Shown here piece after piece: positions 52,700 through 61,424 of a stretch of DNA of 64,000 bases. Below the pieces are notes generated by a model that had not been told where the DNA came from, did no database searches, and was given only the letters and a program-made list of their open reading frames with translations. Every line of letters starts with the position of its first letter. Position 1 is the stretch's first letter. Source of the DNA: Alphaproteobacteria bacterium (lineage in GTDB: Bacteria; Pseudomonadota; Alphaproteobacteria; RF32; CAG-239). The DNA is taken from the NCBI GenBank assembly GCA_017445475.1, contig JAFSUB010000005.1, forward strand, positions 20,124 to 84,123. The letters are read 5' to 3'. The position numbers were made by a program, and so were the translations under genes.

Positions 52700-53260
52700 A
52701 TGACCATTTTATACATCAATGCCTGCGTGCGTGAAAATTCAAGAACCGAAATTTTGGCGCAACATCTTATCAAAAAACTTCAAAAACCCGTTCAACAAAT
52801 CAATCTGGGACAAATTGCTTTGCTGCCTTTTAATCTTGAACTTTTGCAAAAAAGGAACGCTTTAATCAAAGCGGGCGCGCTTGATGATCCGATGTTTTCT
52901 TATGCGCATCAATTTGCCAACGCCTCTGAAATTGTTATTGCCGCGCCGATGTGGGATTTGTCTTTTCCCGCGCTCTTAAAAACATTTATTGAGCACATCA
53001 ATGTCGGCGGCATCGTGTTCAAATATTCAGGTGAAGGAAAAATTGTGCCGCTTTGCAAGGCCAAAACGCTTTATTACGTTACGACGATGGGCGGACATCA
53101 TCAAACCGATTTCGGATTCGGCTACATCAAAGCTTTGTGCCACACACTTTACGGCATCAAAGATGTTCGGCTCATCAAAGCGGAAGGCCTCAACATTATC
53201 GGCAACGATGTTCCGGCCATCTTAGAAGAAGCCAAAGCACAAATTAACACCATGTTTTAA
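52700..53260 (+). CDS. flavodoxin-like fold NAD(P)H-dependent oxidoreductase
   Basis: MTILYINACVRENSRTEIL N-terminus is typical of FMN-dependent NAD(P)H reductases (Flavodoxin_2 family). Confidence 0.6.
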   Translation: MTILYINACVRENSRTEILAQHLIKKLQKPVQQINLGQIALLPFNLELLQKRNALIKAGALDDPMFSYAHQFANASEIVIAAPMWDLSFPALLKTFIEHINVGGIVFKYSGEGKIVPLCKAKTLYYVTTMGGHHQTDFGFGYIKALCHTLYGIKDVRLIKAEGLNIIGNDVPAILEEAKAQINTMF

Positions 53261-54789
53261 CGCCCAATATCTTTGTGCTTGCCGCTTATGCAGTTTTGCC
53301 TTTTGATTTGCTCCCTGTCAACATAAATCACTTTGCCGCAACATGGGTTAAAATCGTCATTATCGTAAATCAGCCAGATGACATTGAGATTTTTCAAATC
53401 TTGACGCGGCATATCACCATATCCGTCCGTCAAAACAATTTTGTTAACTTTTTTATCTTTTGAAAACGCGCGCACAGCCTTGTCAATATCCGTTCCACCG
53501 CCACCTCGAATACGAAATTCATCAATATCTTTATTGGTCTTAATCTCAACAAAATCAAACACGCGGTGGTCAAACATACCGACTTTGAGCTCTGTTTCTT
53601 TTAATAAGGGTTTTAATTGGCGCAAAAAGTCCTTAAGCATATTGTTATCAACCGAACCGGAAACATCAAGCATCACCTCGGTTGTCGATTTATCCTCTGT
53701 TTCAACATCTTCAATGCGCGCACTGTAATCATTTGCACGCGATGCCCTGCGGTATGACCAGCGCTCTTCCTCTTCTTCAACCGATTTTTTCAAGGCTCGT
53801 TTCCAGTTGACAACTGCCTTAGCCTCGCCGACATCGCCAAACGAATCTCCTTCGTTATCAACCCGTTCTTTTGAAAGTTGTTCTTTGGCACGCTCCAAAG
53901 ATTCGATAATTTTTTTGGCAAGTTCTTCTTTTTCTTTTTTATTTTCTTCTAAAAAGCTCTTTTCTTCAGCATTATAATCAACATCTTCCTCTGGCGTTTC
54001 TTCCTCTTTACCATGAATGCGCCTCATAATTTTATCTAAAAGCGAAGGATTTTCACGGCGCTCTTTTTCTTTTTCAGCCTCTTCAACGGCCTCTTTCCAA
54101 ATCTCATGCGACGAATAGCCTGTTTGAGATTGTGCTCCTTGTTGTTGTCCTTCTTGGCTTTGATCTTGCTCTTGCTGCCCCTCTTGGCCGCCTTGCTGAC
54201 CGTTTTGGCCTTGCTCTTGATTCTGTTCCTGCTGCCCCTCTTGGCCACCTTGCTGACCATCCTGTTGTTGGTTTTGGCCGTCTTGGTTTTGCTGTTGTCC
54301 ATCACCTTGCTGACCGTTTTGGCCTTGCTCTTGATTCTGCTCTTGCTGCCCCTCTTGCTCTTTTTGCTTTTCCTCGCGTTCTTTTAAGAGTTTCTCATAC
54401 ATTTCTTCGGCAGATTTGCCCAAAGCTTCCGGCATATCAACACCGCCTTCAATCATCGGCAGATTTTCCGATTTCAAGATTTGATTAATCACCGAATCTG
54501 TTGCAATGTTCCAAAGCCCTGGCTCTTTATCTTTTGAGCGCATAATATGGTCAAATGCCACATGACAAATCTCGTGCGCAAATAAAAACGTCTGCCTACC
54601 GTCGTCTAAGGTGTGCAAAAATGAAGGCGAATAAATCACTTTTTTGCCGTTTGTGGCAGCCGTACCGATATTGTCATTGGCTTCAAAATCAAGACCGCGC
54701 ACAACAGAGCCCAAACGCGGAAATTTTCGCAAAACCGCATTTTTAATCTCCTGCACTTCTTTTTTTTGTTCCAATGTCAAGGCTGCCAT
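53257..54789 (-). CDS. VWA domain protein with N-terminal putative metallopeptidase (DUF2201-like) region and central Q/E/G-rich repeat
   Basis: HEICHVAFDH (HExxH). DVSGSVDNN MIDAS motif in the C-terminal VWA domain. About 100-aa QEQNQEQGQNGQQGG low-complexity tandem repeat. Confidence 0.7.
   Translation of the reverse strand: MAALTLEQKKEVQEIKNAVLRKFPRLGSVVRGLDFEANDNIGTAATNGKKVIYSPSFLHTLDDGRQTFLFAHEICHVAFDHIMRSKDKEPGLWNIATDSVINQILKSENLPMIEGGVDMPEALGKSAEEMYEKLLKEREEKQKEQEGQQEQNQEQGQNGQQGDGQQQNQDGQNQQQDGQQGGQEGQQEQNQEQGQNGQQGGQEGQQEQDQSQEGQQQGAQSQTGYSSHEIWKEAVEEAEKEKERRENPSLLDKIMRRIHGKEEETPEEDVDYNAEEKSFLEENKKEKEELAKKIIESLERAKEQLSKERVDNEGDSFGDVGEAKAVVNWKRALKKSVEEEEERWSYRRASRANDYSARIEDVETEDKSTTEVMLDVSGSVDNNMLKDFLRQLKPLLKETELKVGMFDHRVFDFVEIKTNKDIDEFRIRGGGGTDIDKAVRAFSKDKKVNKIVLTDGYGDMPRQDLKNLNVIWLIYDNDDFNPCCGKVIYVDREQIKRQNCISGKHKDIGR
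54126..54360. repeat. imperfect tandem DNA repeats encoding the Q/E/G-rich linker of the VWA protein
   Basis: Units such as CCTTGCTGACCGTTTTGGCCTTGCTCTTGATTCTG(T/C)TC(C/T)TGCTGCCCCTCTTG recur at 54196-54247 and 54312-54358, with shorter GNCCNTGCT periodicity throughout. Confidence 0.6.
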
Positions 54790-54798
54790 TTTTGCCTC

Positions 54799-55167
54799 CT
54801 ACAACTTCACACTTAAGCACCACTCTTTGAGCTTCGGATTCAGTTTTTTTACACTTAAAACCGGCACGACAATCTGCACCGTATCCGGCAAATAAGCACC
54901 GCCAAGCCCTCTGTTTTTGAGCAAATTTTCAAATTTGAGTTGTTCGGCCAAATCCAAAGCATCTATTCCATCTAAAACAAGATATTTTTTGCCTTTCAAA
55001 AATTTCAGCCACACATCTTTGGTATAAAGCATACGTTCCTCAACACTGCCTGACATCACATACGCGTCTTCAAAATCCCCGGCTTCGGCACCTTCAATAA
55101 TTAAAGGCCACTTGGCATTGTTTTTTAAAACCTCATCCAGTTTTTCTTTTTGCTTTGAACTAATCAT
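54799..55167 (-). CDS. hypothetical protein (122 aa) between the AAA+ ATPase and VWA genes
   Basis: ORF. Overlaps the ATPase gene stop by 8 nt. Likely co-transcribed. Confidence 0.4.
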   Translation of the reverse strand: MISSKQKEKLDEVLKNNAKWPLIIEGAEAGDFEDAYVMSGSVEERMLYTKDVWLKFLKGKKYLVLDGIDALDLAEQLKFENLLKNRGLGGAYLPDTVQIVVPVLSVKKLNPKLKEWCLSVKL

Positions 55168-56692
55168 TATAACCTCCCTCTCTGGCTTTTAATTGGCTGA
55201 TTTGTATCGCGCGCTCGGCATTACCTTGAACCCATTTAGAATCGAACACTGCAAGATTTTCTTTTCCGAGCTCCGAACCGATAAAATCTCGCACTTTTGA
55301 AACATCTTTTTCACTGACTTGGAGTAAACTTAATGACAGGGCTAATCTTGCATCTGCTTCATACGGAATATCATCTCTGTCGTATGTCCCTTCCAACAAA
55401 TCTTCCAAGCCCATCGGCGGATTGAGAGCAAAATCACTCAAATCCATAGCTAGTTCAGCACCTATTTTATTTGCTATCAGCTCTTGCCTTAAAACGCCGT
55501 CGTTGGCATAAATAACATCGGAGATCATTTCCCACCCGCGCGGCGTTAAAGGCAACTTTTCGGGGTTATTTTCATCAAACGGTTGATGAAAAACTTCCAT
55601 GCCTCTTGAGGCTACATAGGCTGAAATCAACGGATGAACATTCAAACGCTCCGGATTATCCTTGCTTTTTTCGGCGCCCCATTCAAGCCATTCGGCAATA
55701 TTCGGCTCTAAATGTATATGCCCGACCATACGATCAATTAAGGGCGCCGGCATATCATAAGCGGCTGTTGAATCGCTGACCTCATTGCCAGCCAACGCAA
55801 TCACCACATTGTCCGGCAACTTTCCTTTATTCTCGGCAATGGAATGCTCCAGCACAATATGATAAATCAGGCTCTGCACGGTCGGTTTGGCATTTGTAAC
55901 TTCATCGATAAACAACACATGGTTTTTATCGGGCTCTTCTTCACATTTTTTCTTTAAGGAAAGGTACCAATCCGGCGCTTCCCAAACGGCGCCGCCGTCG
56001 TCTTTATAACGCGTCTTACCAACCACATCTTCAGGGAGCATTCCGTTGCATAACGTAATCGGTGTCAAATCAGGATCGATTTGTTTAATACGTGCCGATT
56101 TACCGACACCCGCCGGCCCGTGCAACATAAAGCTTTGCTTGGCTTTAACATAAAACGCTATCTGATCTTTAACGCTCATCTCTTTTTCTTCAACCTTAAC
56201 GCCAAACTTTGCGCGTCGGCGTGCCATTTTTTCTTCCCGTGTCATTTTTGGCGCATCATTTTTTGAAACAACCTCCTCGGGTGCCCTTTGTTCCTGTCTT
56301 TGATATTCGCGGCTCGGCATCATCTGCGCTTCAAGCTCTTGCAGCCGCTGATACATATCCGTTTTTTCGAAATCTCCGTCATAGATTGACTTTCTGTCAA
56401 ATTGCACGCCTGCCAAAATCGCCTGCTTGGAAACCCATGTTCCGCTCCTGTCTTTAAGCCATTCGACAGGCTCAACCTTAACCCAATAGGCTTTGCCTTC
56501 CTCAGGTCTTTCGCCGTTTGATAAAATCGAACCTTCATTGGCCACTTTGGCCTCTATTCTGATATATTTTTCGCCGCCGTATGTGTATTCGGCGCTTGAC
56601 CTTTTTTGATATGGTGTGTCATAATCATTTAATTTTGCCGAATCGAAAGTGTAATTCTTTCCCGTTTTTTTAAGCTGTCCCTGCCGATACAA
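55160..56692 (-). CDS. MoxR-like AAA+ ATPase (AAA_5 family); annotated TTG start. The reading frame stays open upstream into the DGR variable repeat.
   Basis: Walker A GPAGVGKS, Walker B VLFIDEV, sensor ALAGNE, about 190-aa N-terminal region of unknown fold. There is no stop codon in this frame between 56692 and the VR. Confidence 0.75.
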   Translation of the reverse strand: MYRQGQLKKTGKNYTFDSAKLNDYDTPYQKRSSAEYTYGGEKYIRIEAKVANEGSILSNGERPEEGKAYWVKVEPVEWLKDRSGTWVSKQAILAGVQFDRKSIYDGDFEKTDMYQRLQELEAQMMPSREYQRQEQRAPEEVVSKNDAPKMTREEKMARRRAKFGVKVEEKEMSVKDQIAFYVKAKQSFMLHGPAGVGKSARIKQIDPDLTPITLCNGMLPEDVVGKTRYKDDGGAVWEAPDWYLSLKKKCEEEPDKNHVLFIDEVTNAKPTVQSLIYHIVLEHSIAENKGKLPDNVVIALAGNEVSDSTAAYDMPAPLIDRMVGHIHLEPNIAEWLEWGAEKSKDNPERLNVHPLISAYVASRGMEVFHQPFDENNPEKLPLTPRGWEMISDVIYANDGVLRQELIANKIGAELAMDLSDFALNPPMGLEDLLEGTYDRDDIPYEADARLALSLSLLQVSEKDVSKVRDFIGSELGKENLAVFDSKWVQGNAERAIQISQLKAREGGYND

Positions 56693-56820
56693 AGACTCAA
56701 GCGCCTTGCCGTTTGAGGCGATTGTTTGCGGAAACTCGCCCCATAAAACGGTTGGAACACCGTTTACGGGCCGCCCTGCCCTCGCTTCGCTCGGGCTGAT
56801 TTGTGATGTGAAAGATGATG

Positions 56821-57096
56821 TTAAAGCAGGGCGAACCGCCGGCAGCCGGGTGCTGGGACCATGGCGTCCTTGCAGCCGTCGCAGCTAACGGTTCGAACAT
56901 CCCCGTCGCCAGACGCCGAAGCCGACCAAAGATAGCCTGCAGGCTTGCCGTCAGAGGCTTGATAATCTTGATCTTGCCAACCACCCAAAAGAACGGCTAA
57001 ATCTGAAAGCGAAGCTGCGCGCATAGCATCATCTCGCATAATCTCTAAAGCCTTACTGCCCCAAAGTTCTTCTGCTTTTAACAGTGTCATTGCCAT
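56821..57096 (-). CDS. DGR variable (target) protein as currently framed: 91 aa with the VR forming its last 36 codons. Likely the frameshifted 5' part of a larger target gene.
   Basis: GAAGGAGAC RBS 6 nt before ATG 57096. The 3' 109 nt are the VR. The stop TAA abuts the end of TR/VR homology. Confidence 0.7.
   Translation of the reverse strand: MAMTLLKAEELWGSKALEIMRDDAMRAASLSDLAVLLGGWQDQDYQASDGKPAGYLWSASASGDGDVRTVSCDGCKDAMVPAPGCRRFALL
56823..56931 (-). repeat. DGR variable repeat (VR)
   Basis: 109 nt homologous to 58401-58510. All roughly 23 substitutions occur where the TR coding strand has A. One base is missing relative to the TR, also at a TR-A position. The GC-rich 3' end GCCGGCGGTTCGCCCTG is conserved in both (IMH-like). 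Confidence 0.85.
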
Positions 57097-57168
57097 GTCA
57101 AGTCTCCTTCTTTGTTTCCTTATATCCCCAGTTTATCCGCCCTTCTCACTTTTGTCAAGAACTTTTTT

Positions 57169-58365
57169 TCATTTTTTTATTTTTTTCATCTTCCGAAAAG
57201 CCTTTTTCACATACCGCATTTCTTTTGTCCCTTTCAAATGCGCTTCAAAAGCATTTTGCCGAACCCGAAGATATTCATCACCGATAAAACCCTGTTTATA
57301 ATTTTTTTCAATCGCTTTAATGTAATGCCGCTCACGCCTTTTGGCCGAACCCCTGAGATTTTTGATAATTTTACCGCTTGCGCTCATTTTGTGGTTAAAA
57401 CCCAAAAAATCCAATCCGTTTTTTATTTTGCCAATCTGCGTTTTTTGGTTAAGTTCCAGCTTTAAATTTTCAGTGCAAACTTTTCTTATCATCTGAAGAC
57501 AATATTGCAAATAAGCTTTATTCTCGCCGAGCAAAATAAAGTCATCCATATAACGCACGTAATATTTCACTTTGAAACGCTCTTTAACCAACCTGTCAAT
57601 TTCATCTAAATATAAAAGCGCAAACCATTGGCTCGTCTGGTTTCCGAGCGGCAAACCGATATTGCCGTGCGATTTAATCAGCATTTTCATAAAAAGCATA
57701 TCATCTTCATCAAAGCCGCATTTTTTGAGTTTTTGAAGCAATATATCGTGATTGATGTTTTGAAAATATTTTTTGATGTCGCACTTTAAAAAATAAAATT
57801 CATTGCTCCCTATCTTGATGAAAAGCCGCCGCATAAATGTATGCAGCCTTTTTATGGCAAAATCTGTTCCCTTGCCTTTTCTGGAAGCCGCATTGTCATA
57901 AATTAAACGATTCTCTAACTTTGGTTCCAAAACATTTTTGCAAAAACTCATCAACACGACTCGGTCTTTATAAGGCAATGCTTCAATCAGGCGAACTTTA
58001 GGGTCATGAATGTAAAACGAGCGGTATTTGCTCACGCAATATTTGGCAGATTCTAAGGATTGATTGAGTTTAACCAAATTTTGCCCAAGCTCAATTTCAA
58101 ACGAAATTGTTGCGCGTTTATGCTGTTTGCTTTTTCGGCAAAGTTTGTGCGCCTTGTGCAGGCTTTGAAATGTCAAAAAGTCCTCTGTCATCGAAAATAA
58201 AAAAAGAAACATCCGATAATACATCAAAACAAAAGCTTGTGTCAATGTATGTGATGTTTCAAAAACACCGAAGCATTTTTTGTTCTTCCTCGCCTTAAAA
58301 AAAACGAGGAAAAGAAAAAGTTTCCTTTGCTTTCGGCTCGGGCGAATTTTACTTAAAACCCGCAA
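57169..58365 (-). CDS. DGR reverse transcriptase (probable true start near MTEDFL, about 58191)
   Basis: RT motifs including LGNQTSQ (the DGR-specific I/LGxxxSQ) and YMDD. N-terminal alignment to Bordetella phage Brt begins at MTEDFLTFQSLHKAHK. The upstream 58 codons are low-complexity. Confidence 0.9.
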   Translation of the reverse strand: MRVLSKIRPSRKQRKLFLFLVFFKARKNKKCFGVFETSHTLTQAFVLMYYRMFLFLFSMTEDFLTFQSLHKAHKLCRKSKQHKRATISFEIELGQNLVKLNQSLESAKYCVSKYRSFYIHDPKVRLIEALPYKDRVVLMSFCKNVLEPKLENRLIYDNAASRKGKGTDFAIKRLHTFMRRLFIKIGSNEFYFLKCDIKKYFQNINHDILLQKLKKCGFDEDDMLFMKMLIKSHGNIGLPLGNQTSQWFALLYLDEIDRLVKERFKVKYYVRYMDDFILLGENKAYLQYCLQMIRKVCTENLKLELNQKTQIGKIKNGLDFLGFNHKMSASGKIIKNLRGSAKRRERHYIKAIEKNYKQGFIGDEYLRVRQNAFEAHLKGTKEMRYVKKAFRKMKKIKK

Positions 58366-58400: not shown

Positions 58401-58510
58401 AAATCAGGGCGAACCGCCGGCTTTCGGTTGTTGGGATTATTGTCGTTCTTGTTGCCGTTTTAGTTAACGGTTTGAACATTTCCGTTGTCATTCGCCGAAG
58501 CCGACCAAAG
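58401..58510 (-). repeat. DGR template repeat (TR)
   Basis: 110 nt. On the minus strand it reads in one frame with 11 AAY codons (AAT/AAC) and is adenine-rich at every position where the VR differs. Located between avd and the RT. Confidence 0.85.
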
Positions 58511-58532
58511 TTCTCTCTTATCAAACTTTTTC

Positions 58533-58976
58533 TCAAACCCGTTGTTTGTTTTCTTTTTGAGCCCACCTTTCATCATCGCTTTTTTTCCACGCCGCAGTCA
58601 GGCCGATGACCTCTGAAACCTGAAGCGCAATTTGTTTATATTGCCTTTCCGTAATACATCCGGCGCCCTGCGCCGTCATTGAAACATAAGAAAGCAACTT
58701 TAACTTAATGAGGGCATTGTGTTGATGATTTTCACGCAAAACTTTATTTTCCGGTGTATCCAGTTTGATAAAATTTGCCCTAAGCAAACTTTCAACCACA
58801 TCCAAACAAAAATTTTGCATGCGATTAACAAAGACACCCCTGAATTTTGCCGGCGATTTCAAAGTTATTGTCATCACGTATTCGCCAAGTTTTTTAGCCT
58901 GCGTGATAACAAACAAATCACTGCCGCCGGCGAAAGATTGCATCTCAAAAACACCGGACTTTTCTGACATACTCAT
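58533..58976 (-). CDS. avd: DGR accessory variability determinant (Avd), four-helix-bundle protein
   Basis: 147 aa. C-terminal ITERQYKQIALQVSEVIGLTAAWKK aligns with the bAvd/TIGR02436 family. Positioned immediately 5' of the TR. Confidence 0.7.
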   Translation of the reverse strand: MSMSEKSGVFEMQSFAGGSDLFVITQAKKLGEYVMTITLKSPAKFRGVFVNRMQNFCLDVVESLLRANFIKLDTPENKVLRENHQHNALIKLKLLSYVSMTAQGAGCITERQYKQIALQVSEVIGLTAAWKKSDDERWAQKENKQRV

Positions 58977-60061
58977 TTGCTTTTGACTCTCAGAGCCGTT
59001 TCCATCACTTTTTGCGCAAGATTGCGGTTATTTGTCATCTTCAAATCGGCTTTTTGCATTGCGGTTTCGTAAATTTTTCGATTGTCAAAAACCTTGTCAA
59101 TCACCCTTAAAAACTGCGCCGAATCGGTTAAATCCTCGTCTTTGATGATTTCGCAAAAACCCTTGGCGGCAAAAGATTTTGCATTCAAACCCTGCTCACC
59201 TCGGCTTGAACTTGACGGCAGAGGCACCAAAACCATCGGTTTTTTGAGACTCAACAACTCAAAAATGGCGTTTGATCCCGCACGCGACACCACAACATCG
59301 GCCGCTTCCATTAAATCTTTAAATTCCGTATCGACATAGTCAAACTGCTTATATCCTTTTGCCTTAACGCTTTCGTCGGTTTGACCGCGCCCGCAGATGT
59401 GTATCAGCTGATATTTTTTTGTAAGTGCCTCTAAATTTGAACGCACTGCCTCGTTTAAGGTTTTTGCGCCAAGCGAACCGCCGACAAACATCAATACCGG
59501 CTTGTTTTCATCAAAGCCGCACAAACCGCAGCCCCTCTTTTTGTCGCCGCCCTCGAATCTGTCCGACAGAACGGGGCCGATATAATCTACTTTTTTCTTG
59601 TTTTTCACATATTTAATCGTGTCGTCAAAGGTTGTGAAAAACCGGCTCACAAACGGCAACGACATCTTATTTGCAAGGCCGGGGGTAACGTCCGATTCGT
59701 GCATAACCGACTTAACGCCGCAAACAAAGCCCGCCAACACCACCGGAAACGACACAAACCCGCCTTTTGAAAAAATGATGTCCGGCTTTTCTTTGAGCAC
59801 AATACAAACCGCCTGCACAACACCAACCGGAATTTTGAGCATATCCAAAAAATTCTGCCACGAAAAATAGCGCCTGAGCTTGCCGGTTTGAATGGCGTGA
59901 TATTGAACCTTGTCGAACTTTTTGATTAAATCGCGTTCAATGCCCGTTTTTGAACCGACATACGAAACCTTCCAGCCTTTTTGCAAAAAAAACGGAATAA
60001 GCGCCAAATTGAGCGTTACGTGCCCTGCACTGCCACCGCCCGTAAAGATAATTTTATTCAT
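58973..60061 (-). CDS. murG: MurG-family GT28 glycosyltransferase (UDP-GlcNAc transferase)
   Basis: FTGGGSAGHV, VGGSLGAKTLN, ADVVVSRAGSNAIFELL...VLVPLP align to MurG motifs. Not in a dcw cluster. Confidence 0.6.
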   Translation of the reverse strand: MNKIIFTGGGSAGHVTLNLALIPFFLQKGWKVSYVGSKTGIERDLIKKFDKVQYHAIQTGKLRRYFSWQNFLDMLKIPVGVVQAVCIVLKEKPDIIFSKGGFVSFPVVLAGFVCGVKSVMHESDVTPGLANKMSLPFVSRFFTTFDDTIKYVKNKKKVDYIGPVLSDRFEGGDKKRGCGLCGFDENKPVLMFVGGSLGAKTLNEAVRSNLEALTKKYQLIHICGRGQTDESVKAKGYKQFDYVDTEFKDLMEAADVVVSRAGSNAIFELLSLKKPMVLVPLPSSSSRGEQGLNAKSFAAKGFCEIIKDEDLTDSAQFLRVIDKVFDNRKIYETAMQKADLKMTNNRNLAQKVMETALRVKSK

Positions 60062-61424
60062 TTGAAACCCTTTCTTCATATTCGATTAAAACATTATTAT
60101 CTGTTTTTAAGTCTATGTTTTTACTTGTTTTTGCACCTTTGTCTTTAAGCTGATGCGCAAACGAAATTGCCCCGCCTCTGCCCGAAAGTTTTGTCATTGC
60201 GTTTTCATAGTGTTTGTGTGTTGTTTGAAGCGATTTATCAATCTGTTCCATATCTTTCACAAATCCCGCAAGCTTATCATATATCTTGCCGCCGATTTCG
60301 GCCAATTCGGCCGCGCTTTTGTTGCGCTTTTCTATTTGCCAAAGGTTTTCTACCGTGCGCAAAAGCGGCAACAGCGACGAGGGCGTCGTAATGGCAATGT
60401 TTTTCTTAACTGCATAATCATACAGGCTTAAATCTGACCGAACCGCCTCGACATAAGCGCTTTCAATGGGGATAAACATCATCACATAGTCAAGTGTTTG
60501 ATCTTTCAAAAGCTTCTGATATTCCTTACCGGAAAGCTCGTCGATGTGCTTTTTTATCGCATTGATATGCCGCTTTAAAGCCTCGCTACGCGCCGTTTCA
60601 TCTTCGGCATTCACATAAGCCACATAATCATTAAGCGAAACTTTGCTGTCAACAATAACCTGACGCTCATCAGGCAGACGGATAACCACATCGGGACGCA
60701 ACATTTCATTGTTTGCACCGCGAAAAGTTTCCTGCTCGAAATAGTTGATTCCTTTTTCAAGCCCCGAAATTTCAAGAATGCGCTCAAGCTGAAACTCGCC
60801 CCAGTTTCCTTGAATTTTTTTGTTTCCTTTCAATGCGTTGCTTAAATTAGTTGCTTCTTTACTTAAACTTTGATTCAAATCAAAAAGGCTTTTAATCTGC
60901 GCATCAAACTTGATTCTGTCATCATGGTTTTCTTCCATTTTCTTTTTAAGTTCGGCAAGCTTTCCTTCAAATGGTTTGAGAATCAAATCAAGCGCCGTCT
61001 TTTGATTTTCACCGAAAGCATTGTTCTGCGCCTTGATAATTTCGTTTGAAATGTCCTTAAACTTCAGGCTCATTTCCTCTTTGCTTTTTTCAATAAACGA
61101 AAGTTTTTCGGCCATATATTTTTCACGCAGCAGACAATCTGCCTTGAGGCGCTCGTTTTCTTTGACAAGCTCTCTGTTTTCGCAGGCAAGCTCGGCAAAC
61201 GCCTCCCTTTGAGCCGAAAGCTCATCTTCTTTAAGCCTGCGCCAAGCCTCATGTTCAACATCTTTTATTTGCAACATTTTGAGGCGGCGGTTTTGTTTGA
61301 CGTTCATACACAAAAACATCACCCAAAAGATGAAAAATAAAGCGCAACATATTGTAATTAAGACAAAAACATTTTCGTTTTTAGAGGCAAAAAATTCAAG
61401 CATATCTTTCTCCGTTGCGCTCAT
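60054..61424 (-). CDS. rmuC: DNA recombination protein RmuC (start at MSATEKDML preferred)
   Basis: N-terminal TM helix, long coiled coil. C-terminal RmuC nuclease-like region GNWGEFQLERILE...DVVIRLPDERQVIVDSK. Confidence 0.8.
   Translation of the reverse strand: MSATEKDMLEFFASKNENVFVLITICCALFFIFWVMFLCMNVKQNRRLKMLQIKDVEHEAWRRLKEDELSAQREAFAELACENRELVKENERLKADCLLREKYMAEKLSFIEKSKEEMSLKFKDISNEIIKAQNNAFGENQKTALDLILKPFEGKLAELKKKMEENHDDRIKFDAQIKSLFDLNQSLSKEATNLSNALKGNKKIQGNWGEFQLERILEISGLEKGINYFEQETFRGANNEMLRPDVVIRLPDERQVIVDSKVSLNDYVAYVNAEDETARSEALKRHINAIKKHIDELSGKEYQKLLKDQTLDYVMMFIPIESAYVEAVRSDLSLYDYAVKKNIAITTPSSLLPLLRTVENLWQIEKRNKSAAELAEIGGKIYDKLAGFVKDMEQIDKSLQTTHKHYENAMTKLSGRGGAISFAHQLKDKGAKTSKNIDLKTDNNVLIEYEERVSNE

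Follow-up and report, generated by a model that had tools for sequence, protein, structure and literature searches.

The question raised by this locus is which protein its diversity-generating retroelement (DGR) diversifies, and what the retroelement does beside an operon for a MoxR-like ATPase and a protein with a von Willebrand factor type A (VWA or vWA) domain. The window analysed is a stretch of 64,000 nucleotides from an Alphaproteobacteria bacterium (contig JAFSUB010000005.1, positions 20,124 to 84,123); all coordinates below are positions in this window, and all features of the cassette lie on its minus strand. A first-pass annotation had placed three tightly packed genes, for an AAA_5-type ATPase, a small protein and a VWA protein, immediately 3' of a separate open reading frame (ORF) carrying the variable repeat (VR), and had raised the possibility of a translational fusion. 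We find that the VR lies inside the ATPase gene itself and not upstream of it. The cassette consists of Avd, a template repeat (TR), a reverse transcriptase (RT) and a single target, and this target is packed in one operon with the genes for a 122-aa protein and a peptidase-VWA protein. We hold the genetic architecture as a whole with very high confidence.

As annotated, the ATPase ORF (55160..56692) encodes 510 aa from a TTG start and is labelled 'AAA family ATPase' at NCBI. It overlaps the small-protein gene (54799..55167; 122 aa) by 8 nt, and a gap of 9 nt separates the 122-aa ORF from the VWA ORF (53257..54789; 510 aa), which lies 380 nt downstream of the ATPase gene. The three minus-strand ORFs and their spacings of -8 and +9 nt are thus as first described, while the limit at 56692 is an artefact. 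The VR (56823..56933 in the TR/VR alignment) has lost one base relative to the TR (58401..58512; 112 nt), of which it is a direct repeat, and the repeat halves are accordingly spaced by 1579 and 1578 nt. At the deletion site (56864..56865) the TR reads GACAAT and the VR G-CCAT. The AAC/AAT-rich reading frame of the TR is uninterrupted where the VR has its gap, and past the gap the VR runs in the frame of the ATPase ORF, with no stop before the TTG at 56692. Restoring the one base gives a single ORF of 645 codons from 57096 to 55160 (the reconstructed target gene, 55160..57096), in which the VR occupies codons ~55-92. No other stops or frameshifts were found in this 1.9-kb gene. The 91-aa 'VR ORF' (56821..57096) therefore corresponds to target codons 1-77 followed by 14 out-of-frame codons past the deletion, and the '510-aa ATPase' comprises the 3' part of the target, its start having been set at the first codon that could serve as one. 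The 1-nt deletion leaves the target ORF of the window broken into 91-aa and 510-aa ORFs and makes it a null or 'off' sensor allele. Their coupling would have been contradicted by a terminator separating the VR ORF from the ATPase gene; the terminator scan found no minus-strand terminator-like site at 56821-56692.

The relatives of the reconstructed protein are mostly 640-690 aa long and align over 98-100% of its length with 41-53% identity (120 listed). The product of the window itself at NCBI, 'MAG: AAA family ATPase [Alphaproteobacteria bacterium]' (P0001), is 100% identical and covers 79% of the reconstruction. The alignment of the homologues is unbroken from residue 1 to the C-terminus, junction included; the motifs W.AS and RPAL are conserved, and the hypervariable columns between them correspond to the VR. 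In the AlphaFold model of the closest intact homologue (P0003), which is confident (predicted local distance difference test, pLDDT, 88.5), residues 1-262 form a compact N-terminal unit and residues 263-277 a disordered linker, followed by an AAA+ domain whose C-terminal part is helical. The fusion of sensor and ATPase is the native architecture, so that the VR is coupled to the ATPase more tightly than had been proposed, within the N-terminal module of the same protein, and the apparent order of a VR ORF followed by an ATPase gene stems from the frameshift inside the VR. A separate 91-aa VR protein beside an independent ATPase operon was ruled out, given the open frame through the VR, the one-base gap and the continuous homologues. 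The identical -1 allele is present in two further assemblies made with different pipelines (L097 and L098), possibly from the same or related samples, and to that extent the idea that the frameshift is an assembly artefact alone is weakened. For annotation, the lesson is that a split pair of 'hypothetical protein' and 'AAA family ATPase' beside an RT can be one DGR target.

The part of the target that carries the VR is an N-terminal module of ~262 aa (~56312-57096), putatively a binding module. Modelled alone, the N-terminal unit reached a pLDDT of 95.8 and a predicted template modelling score (pTM) of 0.92. Among ten proteins from different metagenomes that are 92-97% identical, the differences fall mainly at residues 62-85, where 15 of the 18 most variable columns are located; this concentration is direct evidence of diversification in nature. 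In other members of the ATPase family, the module is replaced by N-termini of ankyrin or BspA-type leucine-rich repeats (LRRs), and this exchange marks the N-terminal position as one for a swappable binding head. Foldseek returned no significant match for the module, which did not qualify as a C-type-lectin fold. The window protein has no match to Pfam DUF6273 at E<=0.1, and one of 21 N-terminal fragments matched this family; hhalign aligned the module with the N-termini of the DUF6273-matching relatives with a probability of 81.7% and an E-value of 1.1e-5 over 90 columns. A profile search of the VR subdomain against the PDB yielded summed sub-threshold matches to PQQ/beta-propeller blades and designed propellers, which we took as repeat-like noise.

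The 262-aa module family is large and essentially unannotated: the module matches 2967 cluster representatives, with E<=1e-30 for 853. A stand-alone example was confirmed in a 269-aa protein (L092 5001-5810) with no DGR within 5 kb, and the module is also found fused to DUF4116 repeats or ankyrin repeats. Many of the short stand-alone matches (270-400 aa) may be fragments from short contigs.

The VR and TR are a genuine DGR pair: all 24 substitutions between them fall at TR adenines, of which there are 37, in addition to the one 1-nt gap. No further TR-like copies were found in the window besides the VR. Translated in the VR frame, the TR reads LWSASANDNGNVQTVN, a stop and NGNKNDNNPNNRKPAVRPD; it holds an in-frame TAA and two AAG codons. 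The RT gene lies directly 3' of the TR (57169..58365, with the TTG start as listed); its product matches Pfam RVT_1 with 72 bits, and LGNQTSQ and YMDD are readable in the translation. The RT is called as 335 aa in other assemblies, and tblastn alignments of its first ~60 residues cross stops in related loci. The ORF from TTG 58365 is thus probably over-extended at its 5' end, the sequence comparisons pointing to a true start near 58176 and a protein of 335 aa. The Avd-like gene (58533..58976; 147 aa) gave only sub-threshold profile matches, to NCBIfam DivGenRetAVD (NF033474; 25.9 bits, E 9e-6, cut-off 80) and to Pfam bAvd (22.7 bits, E 1.5e-4, cut-off 40). In more than 20 loci, an Avd homologue with 50-68% identity is found in this same position before the RT gene.

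With the VR near the N-terminus of its protein, the cis-elements of the DGR must sit inside coding sequence. Both repeats end in an identical GCCGGCGGTTCGCCCTG, a GC-rich 3' boundary resembling an initiation of mutagenic homing (IMH) site, and in every locus there is a fixed 3' difference between TR (...RPDL, GAT) and VR (...RPAL, GCT). The coding sequence also contains a conserved hairpin, GCCC-GA-GC-GAA-GC-GA-GGGC (56778..56796), some 28 nt 3' of the VR. In an RNAalifold analysis of 12 alphaproteobacterial loci, four of its six base pairs showed compensatory changes; the same element is present, also with compensatory changes, in six Bacilli/Clostridia loci, and its consensus across loci is YCCC-GA-RC-NNN-GY-GA-GGGR. 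The DGR of Bordetella phage BPP-1 has known target-recognition elements. By analogy, the hairpin and the 3' boundary look like candidate DGR target-recognition elements that are confined by coding sequence.

The remainder of the target (~55160-56200; ~aa 300-645) is a MoxR-like AAA+ ATPase whose C-terminal part is helical. The AAA_5 assignment of the first-pass annotation holds with a marginal profile match (24.1 bits against a Pfam cut-off of 22), and AAA_3 remained below its cut-off (22.8 against 27). Walker A (GPAGVGKS), Walker B (VLFIDE) and sensor-1 (AGN) are all present, and their positions are invariant or nearly so in 17-55 homologues; G327, G332, K333, D398, E399, N438 and R456, the arginine finger, are invariant in the alignment. 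In a Foldseek search with the P0003 model, CbbQ2 (6l1q; E 2e-10, TMt 0.58) and NorQ (9qh7; E 5e-9, TMt 0.65) came first, other NorQ-NorD VWA complexes (9qh*) were weaker (to the 1e-8 range), and McrB and dynein AAA modules ranked next. This order identifies the ATPase as a MoxR-type AAA+ protein. It also matches the phage family PHROG 1297 (E 7e-43).

The third protein of the operon combines a zinc metallopeptidase, a low-complexity linker and a VWA domain, the last being C-terminal. The profile matches to DUF2201_N, a putative metallopeptidase family (PF13203; 83.5 bits), and to the VWA-like DUF2201 (PF09967; 55.1 bits) bear out the reading of an HExxH region, a Q/E/G-rich linker and a metal ion-dependent adhesion site (MIDAS). 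The motifs are HEICHVAFDH (HExxHxxxxH), whose H, E, H and H are kept in 74, 72, 74 and 74 of the 74 homologues, and the MIDAS DVSGS...T...D, in which each of the D, S and S of DxSxS is kept in all 74. PHROG 1314 matches the protein with an E-value of 2e-67. The linker is encoded by an imperfect tandem repeat of 57 nt in 3.5 copies (54160..54358; TRF), and the length of the peptidase-VWA protein varies from 494 to 598 aa among its homologues.

The 122-aa protein has no match in Pfam (E<=0.1), NCBIfam, PADLOC or PHROG. It aligns with the Walker B to sensor-1 region of the ATPase (hhalign probability 79.5%, E 1.5e-5) and has neither a Walker A motif nor a P-loop lysine, and individual members of its family give weak matches to NPHP3_N (NACHT-like) and AAA_5. 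With moderate support from these alignments, it is probably a degenerate AAA+ core remnant lacking Walker A, here called mini-AAA, and the third component of the system. Sequence searches of the PDB returned nothing significant for the VWA and small proteins. A crude hydropathy scan found no hydrophobic segment of transmembrane length in any of the three proteins, which appear to be cytoplasmic, and the ligand of the variable head is for this reason probably intracellular.

To examine how widely the arrangement occurs, genomes were scanned with one genome per species. Relatives are encoded at 436 loci, and the neighbourhood counts that follow refer to the best 80 of these. Almost all of the 80 loci come from metagenome-assembled genomes (MAGs) of human, ruminant and other animal guts, labelled as Alphaproteobacteria, Clostridia, Bacilli or 'Tenericutes'. 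A peptidase-VWA homologue is present in 70 of the 80, mostly directly downstream of the ATPase gene, and a detectable homologue of the 122-aa protein in 46. An RT is present in 26, nearly always directly upstream of the target and usually with an Avd homologue, so that the co-occurrence of DGR, MoxR and VWA genes in other genomes, suggested earlier as a check, is borne out. All 26 belong to the 46 loci with an N-terminal module of the window type and none to the 34 loci without it (Fisher p = 1.3e-8), a few of the module-less loci being cut by contig ends. In more than 20 loci the TR lies between Avd and RT and the paired VR ~150-300 nt into the fusion gene, with mismatches essentially limited to TR adenines. 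The full order Avd-TR-RT-fusion-small protein-DUF2201 recurs in at least 20 species from three phylum-level groups. No conserved linked client gene was found around the loci. A viral origin of the fusion was considered and discarded, a scan of IMG/VR having given one distant ATPase relative only.

Some related cassettes (L086-L089, 1-1283; L003, 1-5741) have a resolvase or phage- or defence-like genes as neighbours (Mu F, PIF1 helicase, AAA_14/DUF4143), which is a hint of mobility.

The frameshift of the window is not an isolated case. Of the DGR-linked loci, 27 offer a clear TR/VR pair, and in about half of these the VR is interrupted, by a frameshift in the window, L016, L019 and L087 and by an in-frame stop in L004, L005, L013, L031, L056, L079, L083, L086, L088 and L089; stops outside the VR are rare in the target genes. 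One species is represented in the databases by many entries of 549-592 aa whose N-terminus was truncated in gene calling, and a TGA or a deletion is present in the VR of four independent assemblies. TRs with an in-frame TAA and AAA/AAG codons occur in the window and in L004, L005, L007, L044, L056, L083 and L086-L089; faithful or partly mutated copying of such TRs would seed stops in the VR. One codon templated by TAA encodes Trp (TGG) in three of four intact alleles (P0004, P0126, P0132 and P0124), which suggests selection for Trp at this site; TGA would then be a near-miss that arises often, or a stop that leaks. The same codon reads TGA in L086, L088, L089 and L004. An alternative code in which TGA encodes Trp was ruled out, since the in-frame stops of the target genes lie for the most part within the VR and a stop was seen in just one VWA gene; the apparent stops in the RT alignments are no sign of such a code either, as they lie upstream of the true RT start. 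The null alleles may reflect a cost of mutagenesis, a selected off state or leaky UGA decoding. That VR-null alleles are so frequent in nature is relevant to what DGR mutagenesis costs and how it is regulated.

We consider that the cassette is best explained as a system of recognition, remodelling and proteolysis, most likely one for conflict, in which a DGR-diversified binding head is carried by a MoxR ATPase with a peptidase-VWA partner, and give this explanation somewhat better than even chances. A diversified recognition module feeding an ATPase/VWA machine, as the first-pass annotation had it, fits the conserved architecture. In such a system, the DGR would rewrite ~20 codons on the beta-hairpin-rich surface of the module and so alter its ligand specificity, and the ATPase might form a MoxR-like hexamer displaying six variable heads. 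The vWA protein would dock on this ring as an adaptor, in the manner of NorQ-NorD and CbbQ-CbbO, and the tethered zinc peptidase could either be brought to the ligand captured by a head or be activated by ATP-driven remodelling. Its output may be cleavage of the captured ligand or of a downstream substrate, while the mini-AAA could tune assembly or activity of the ring. The peptidase is the only obvious output of the cassette, and the variable head sits directly on the motor protein. The swapping of heads, the patchy cross-phylum spread within one habitat, the resolvase and phage-like neighbours and the published precedent make a role in conflict with phages or mobile elements the most likely one, and to this role we give a little less than even chances. 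By analogy with that precedent, the system might recognise proteins of the invaders and answer with proteolysis. A more far-reaching version, which we regard as rather unlikely, is that of a horizontally mobile, DGR-reprogrammed AAA+/zinc-peptidase cassette providing adaptive-immunity-like recognition and proteolysis, with stop-prone TRs as a switch that limits self-damage.

Several points weigh against a conflict system. The sensor of the window is frameshifted and about half of the DGR-linked loci are null, so the system may often be inactive or counter-selected. Among annotated sequences, those nearest to the ATPase/peptidase-vWA pair are phage genes (PHROG 1297 and 1314; N4-like phages), and no PADLOC defence model matches any of the three proteins. 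Because MoxR ATPases are remodellers and not proven unfoldases, the coupling to proteolysis is conjecture, and the Foldseek result for the binding module gives no indication of the ligand class.

The explanation that survives best beside the conflict system is a housekeeping or phage-derived chaperone or processing module, whose DGR head retargets it to changing clients, for example surface or secreted proteins, with no part in immunity. The strong matches to PHROG 1297 and 1314 and the N4-like phage genes fit it well, as do the chaperone or co-chaperone role proposed for the jumbo-phage pairs (PMC7824862), the maturation-factor function of CbbQO and NorQD, which are the best structural matches, and the silence of PADLOC. 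However, a conserved client would need no hypervariable recognition, and such a client gene was not found linked to the loci; moreover, the exchange of ankyrin, LRR and module heads and the patchy cross-phylum distribution in one habitat are patterns typical of conflict systems. We consider the chaperone explanation unlikely.

Quite improbable, in our judgement, is that the DGR acts mainly as an on/off switch and not to fine-tune specificity, so that a sensor-ATPase which is costly or toxic to its own cell would frequently alternate between null and functional alleles, the allele of the window being a selected 'off' state. The TAA and AAA/AAG codons of the TRs, through which mutagenic homing would often yield stops, the accumulation of nulls in the VR in about half of the DGR-linked loci with stops rare in the rest of the gene, the species from which mostly N-terminally truncated alleles were recovered and the reappearance of the window's -1 allele in two other assemblies are what a switch would predict. 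On the other hand, intact alleles with diverse VRs are common too, and the nulls may be an unselected cost of mutagenesis or be inflated by consensus assembly. Least probable of all is a decaying locus, in which DGR and target are remnants and the ATPase, small and VWA proteins act, if at all, without a variable head: the VR is frameshifted, the 510-aa ORF begins within the 260-aa module and leaves it truncated, and the RT is missing from 20 of the 46 module-bearing loci, but Avd, TR and RT of the window are intact, the difference between VR and TR at 24 of 37 adenines testifies to past homing, the 1.9-kb gene is otherwise free of stops and frameshifts so that one homing event would restore its frame, and the partner genes are intact with all motifs present.

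The surroundings of the cassette in the window are housekeeping genes (trmFO, tyrS, rmuC and a murG-like gene). The ATG of the Avd-like gene overlaps the stop of the murG-like glycosyltransferase gene (58973-60079) at 58973-58976, so transcription from a housekeeping operon may extend into the DGR. A promoter-like site, TTGACA-17-TAAACT, lies between the RT and target genes (57130..57158; 10/12 matches in a consensus scan) and a second one upstream of Avd (59100-59073). Promoter and terminator scans of the region gave site counts no higher than the shuffled expectation, and the site at 57130..57158 is a lead only.

The role of cellular, that is non-phage, DGRs is largely open, and the published examples linked to MoxR-vWA genes are of large size, have many domains and come from experimentally difficult organisms. 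The cassette described here comprises Avd, TR, RT and three genes in about six kilobases. Since it is small, recurrent and has a single target, the ligand of a DGR-diversified cytoplasmic sensor and the consequence of ligand binding could be tested directly by transplanting it.

The arrangement had been thought undescribed. That does not hold for the coupling as such, as DGRs coupled to MoxR-vWA 'VMAP ternary' conflict systems have been published (Kaur et al. 2020, PMC7159879; Dore et al. 2024, PMC10907252), and it stands for the specific combination of a VR on the ATPase, a DUF2201 peptidase-vWA protein, a mini-AAA and unicellular gut taxa, of which we found no description in the literature searched. 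The searched main text of Roux et al. 2021 does not mention ATPase targets. The VMAP ternary systems share with the window cassette the coupling of a DGR to MoxR-vWA genes, and their diversified domain is the proposed sensor of a conflict system dependent on nucleoside triphosphates. In those systems, however, it is a C-terminal FGS/C-type-lectin domain that carries the VR, mostly as part of the vWA protein or of a separate target, whereas the VR of the window is N-terminal and on the ATPase itself; no effector or FGS domain with a VR was found C-terminal to the vWA domain here, the only VR of the window being in the ATPase gene. Their third component is a VMAP protein with peptidase, cyclase or adaptor domains, in place of which the window has the 122-aa mini-AAA; this protein had no Pfam match to a VMAP-C domain at E<=0.1, in a Pfam copy whose VMAP models are unconfirmed. 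The vWA protein of the window differs further in its N-terminal zincin peptidase (DUF2201). The hosts differ as well, being mostly multicellular cyanobacteria, actinobacteria or Chromatiales for the VMAP ternary systems and MAGs of gut Alphaproteobacteria, Bacilli and Clostridia for the window family.

The same two protein families, encoded close together, form the pair of PHROG 1297 and 1314 in jumbo phages and N4-like Schitoviridae, and a role in virion assembly or processing has been proposed for the MoxR and metallopeptidase-vWA pair of jumbo phages (Iyer et al. 2021, PMC7824862). A tblastn search found the peptidase-VWA protein in 435 phage records. N4-like Schitoviridae account for many of these, and in them its gene lies close to one for an AAA+ ATPase. 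As PHROG 1297 (356 positions) matches only aa 308-596 of the target, the phage ATPases appear to be without the N-terminal module; a DGR was not seen in the one phage neighbourhood examined, and the mini-AAA has no PHROG match. PHROG 1314 and RefSeq copies from N4-like phages (such as NC_070861.1 and NC_048659.1) are labelled 'HNH endonuclease', the GenBank originals being named 'von Willebrand factor type A' or 'metallopeptidase'. The former label on phage metallopeptidase-VWA homologues looks like a propagated mis-annotation.

Among the classical MoxR-VWA pairs, CbbQ-CbbO, NorQ-NorD, RavA-ViaA and CoxD-CoxE resemble the cassette in having an adjacent VWA partner with a MIDAS, and the AAA+ fold is nearest to that of CbbQ and NorQ. 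Their ATPases differ in having neither variable head nor DGR, their VWA partners have no peptidase, and they serve fixed enzymes as clients. From the candidate phyla radiation (CPR), DGR targets that contain a midasin-like AAA/P-loop domain have been reported as the UVR4 class, whose VR type is unclassified (Wu et al. 2018, PMC5758913). Compared by description, they share with the window an AAA/midasin-type NTPase in the DGR target and differ in that a peptidase-vWA partner is unreported for them. The same study lists only three DGRs with N-terminal diversification. An N-terminal VR, with DGR cis-elements that consequently lie inside coding sequence, is also found in the tentaclins, phage receptor-binding proteins with a DUF6273-like DGR-diversified domain at the N-terminus (PMC10743442). 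Tentaclins are phage tail proteins with immunoglobulin-like domains, whereas the module of the window is fused to an AAA+ domain, is encoded on cellular chromosomes and falls below the Pfam threshold for DUF6273. Taken against these systems, the cassette extends the coupling of DGRs to MoxR-vWA genes beyond multicellular bacteria and provides a clear example of a VR placed N-terminally whose cis-elements are contained in coding sequence.

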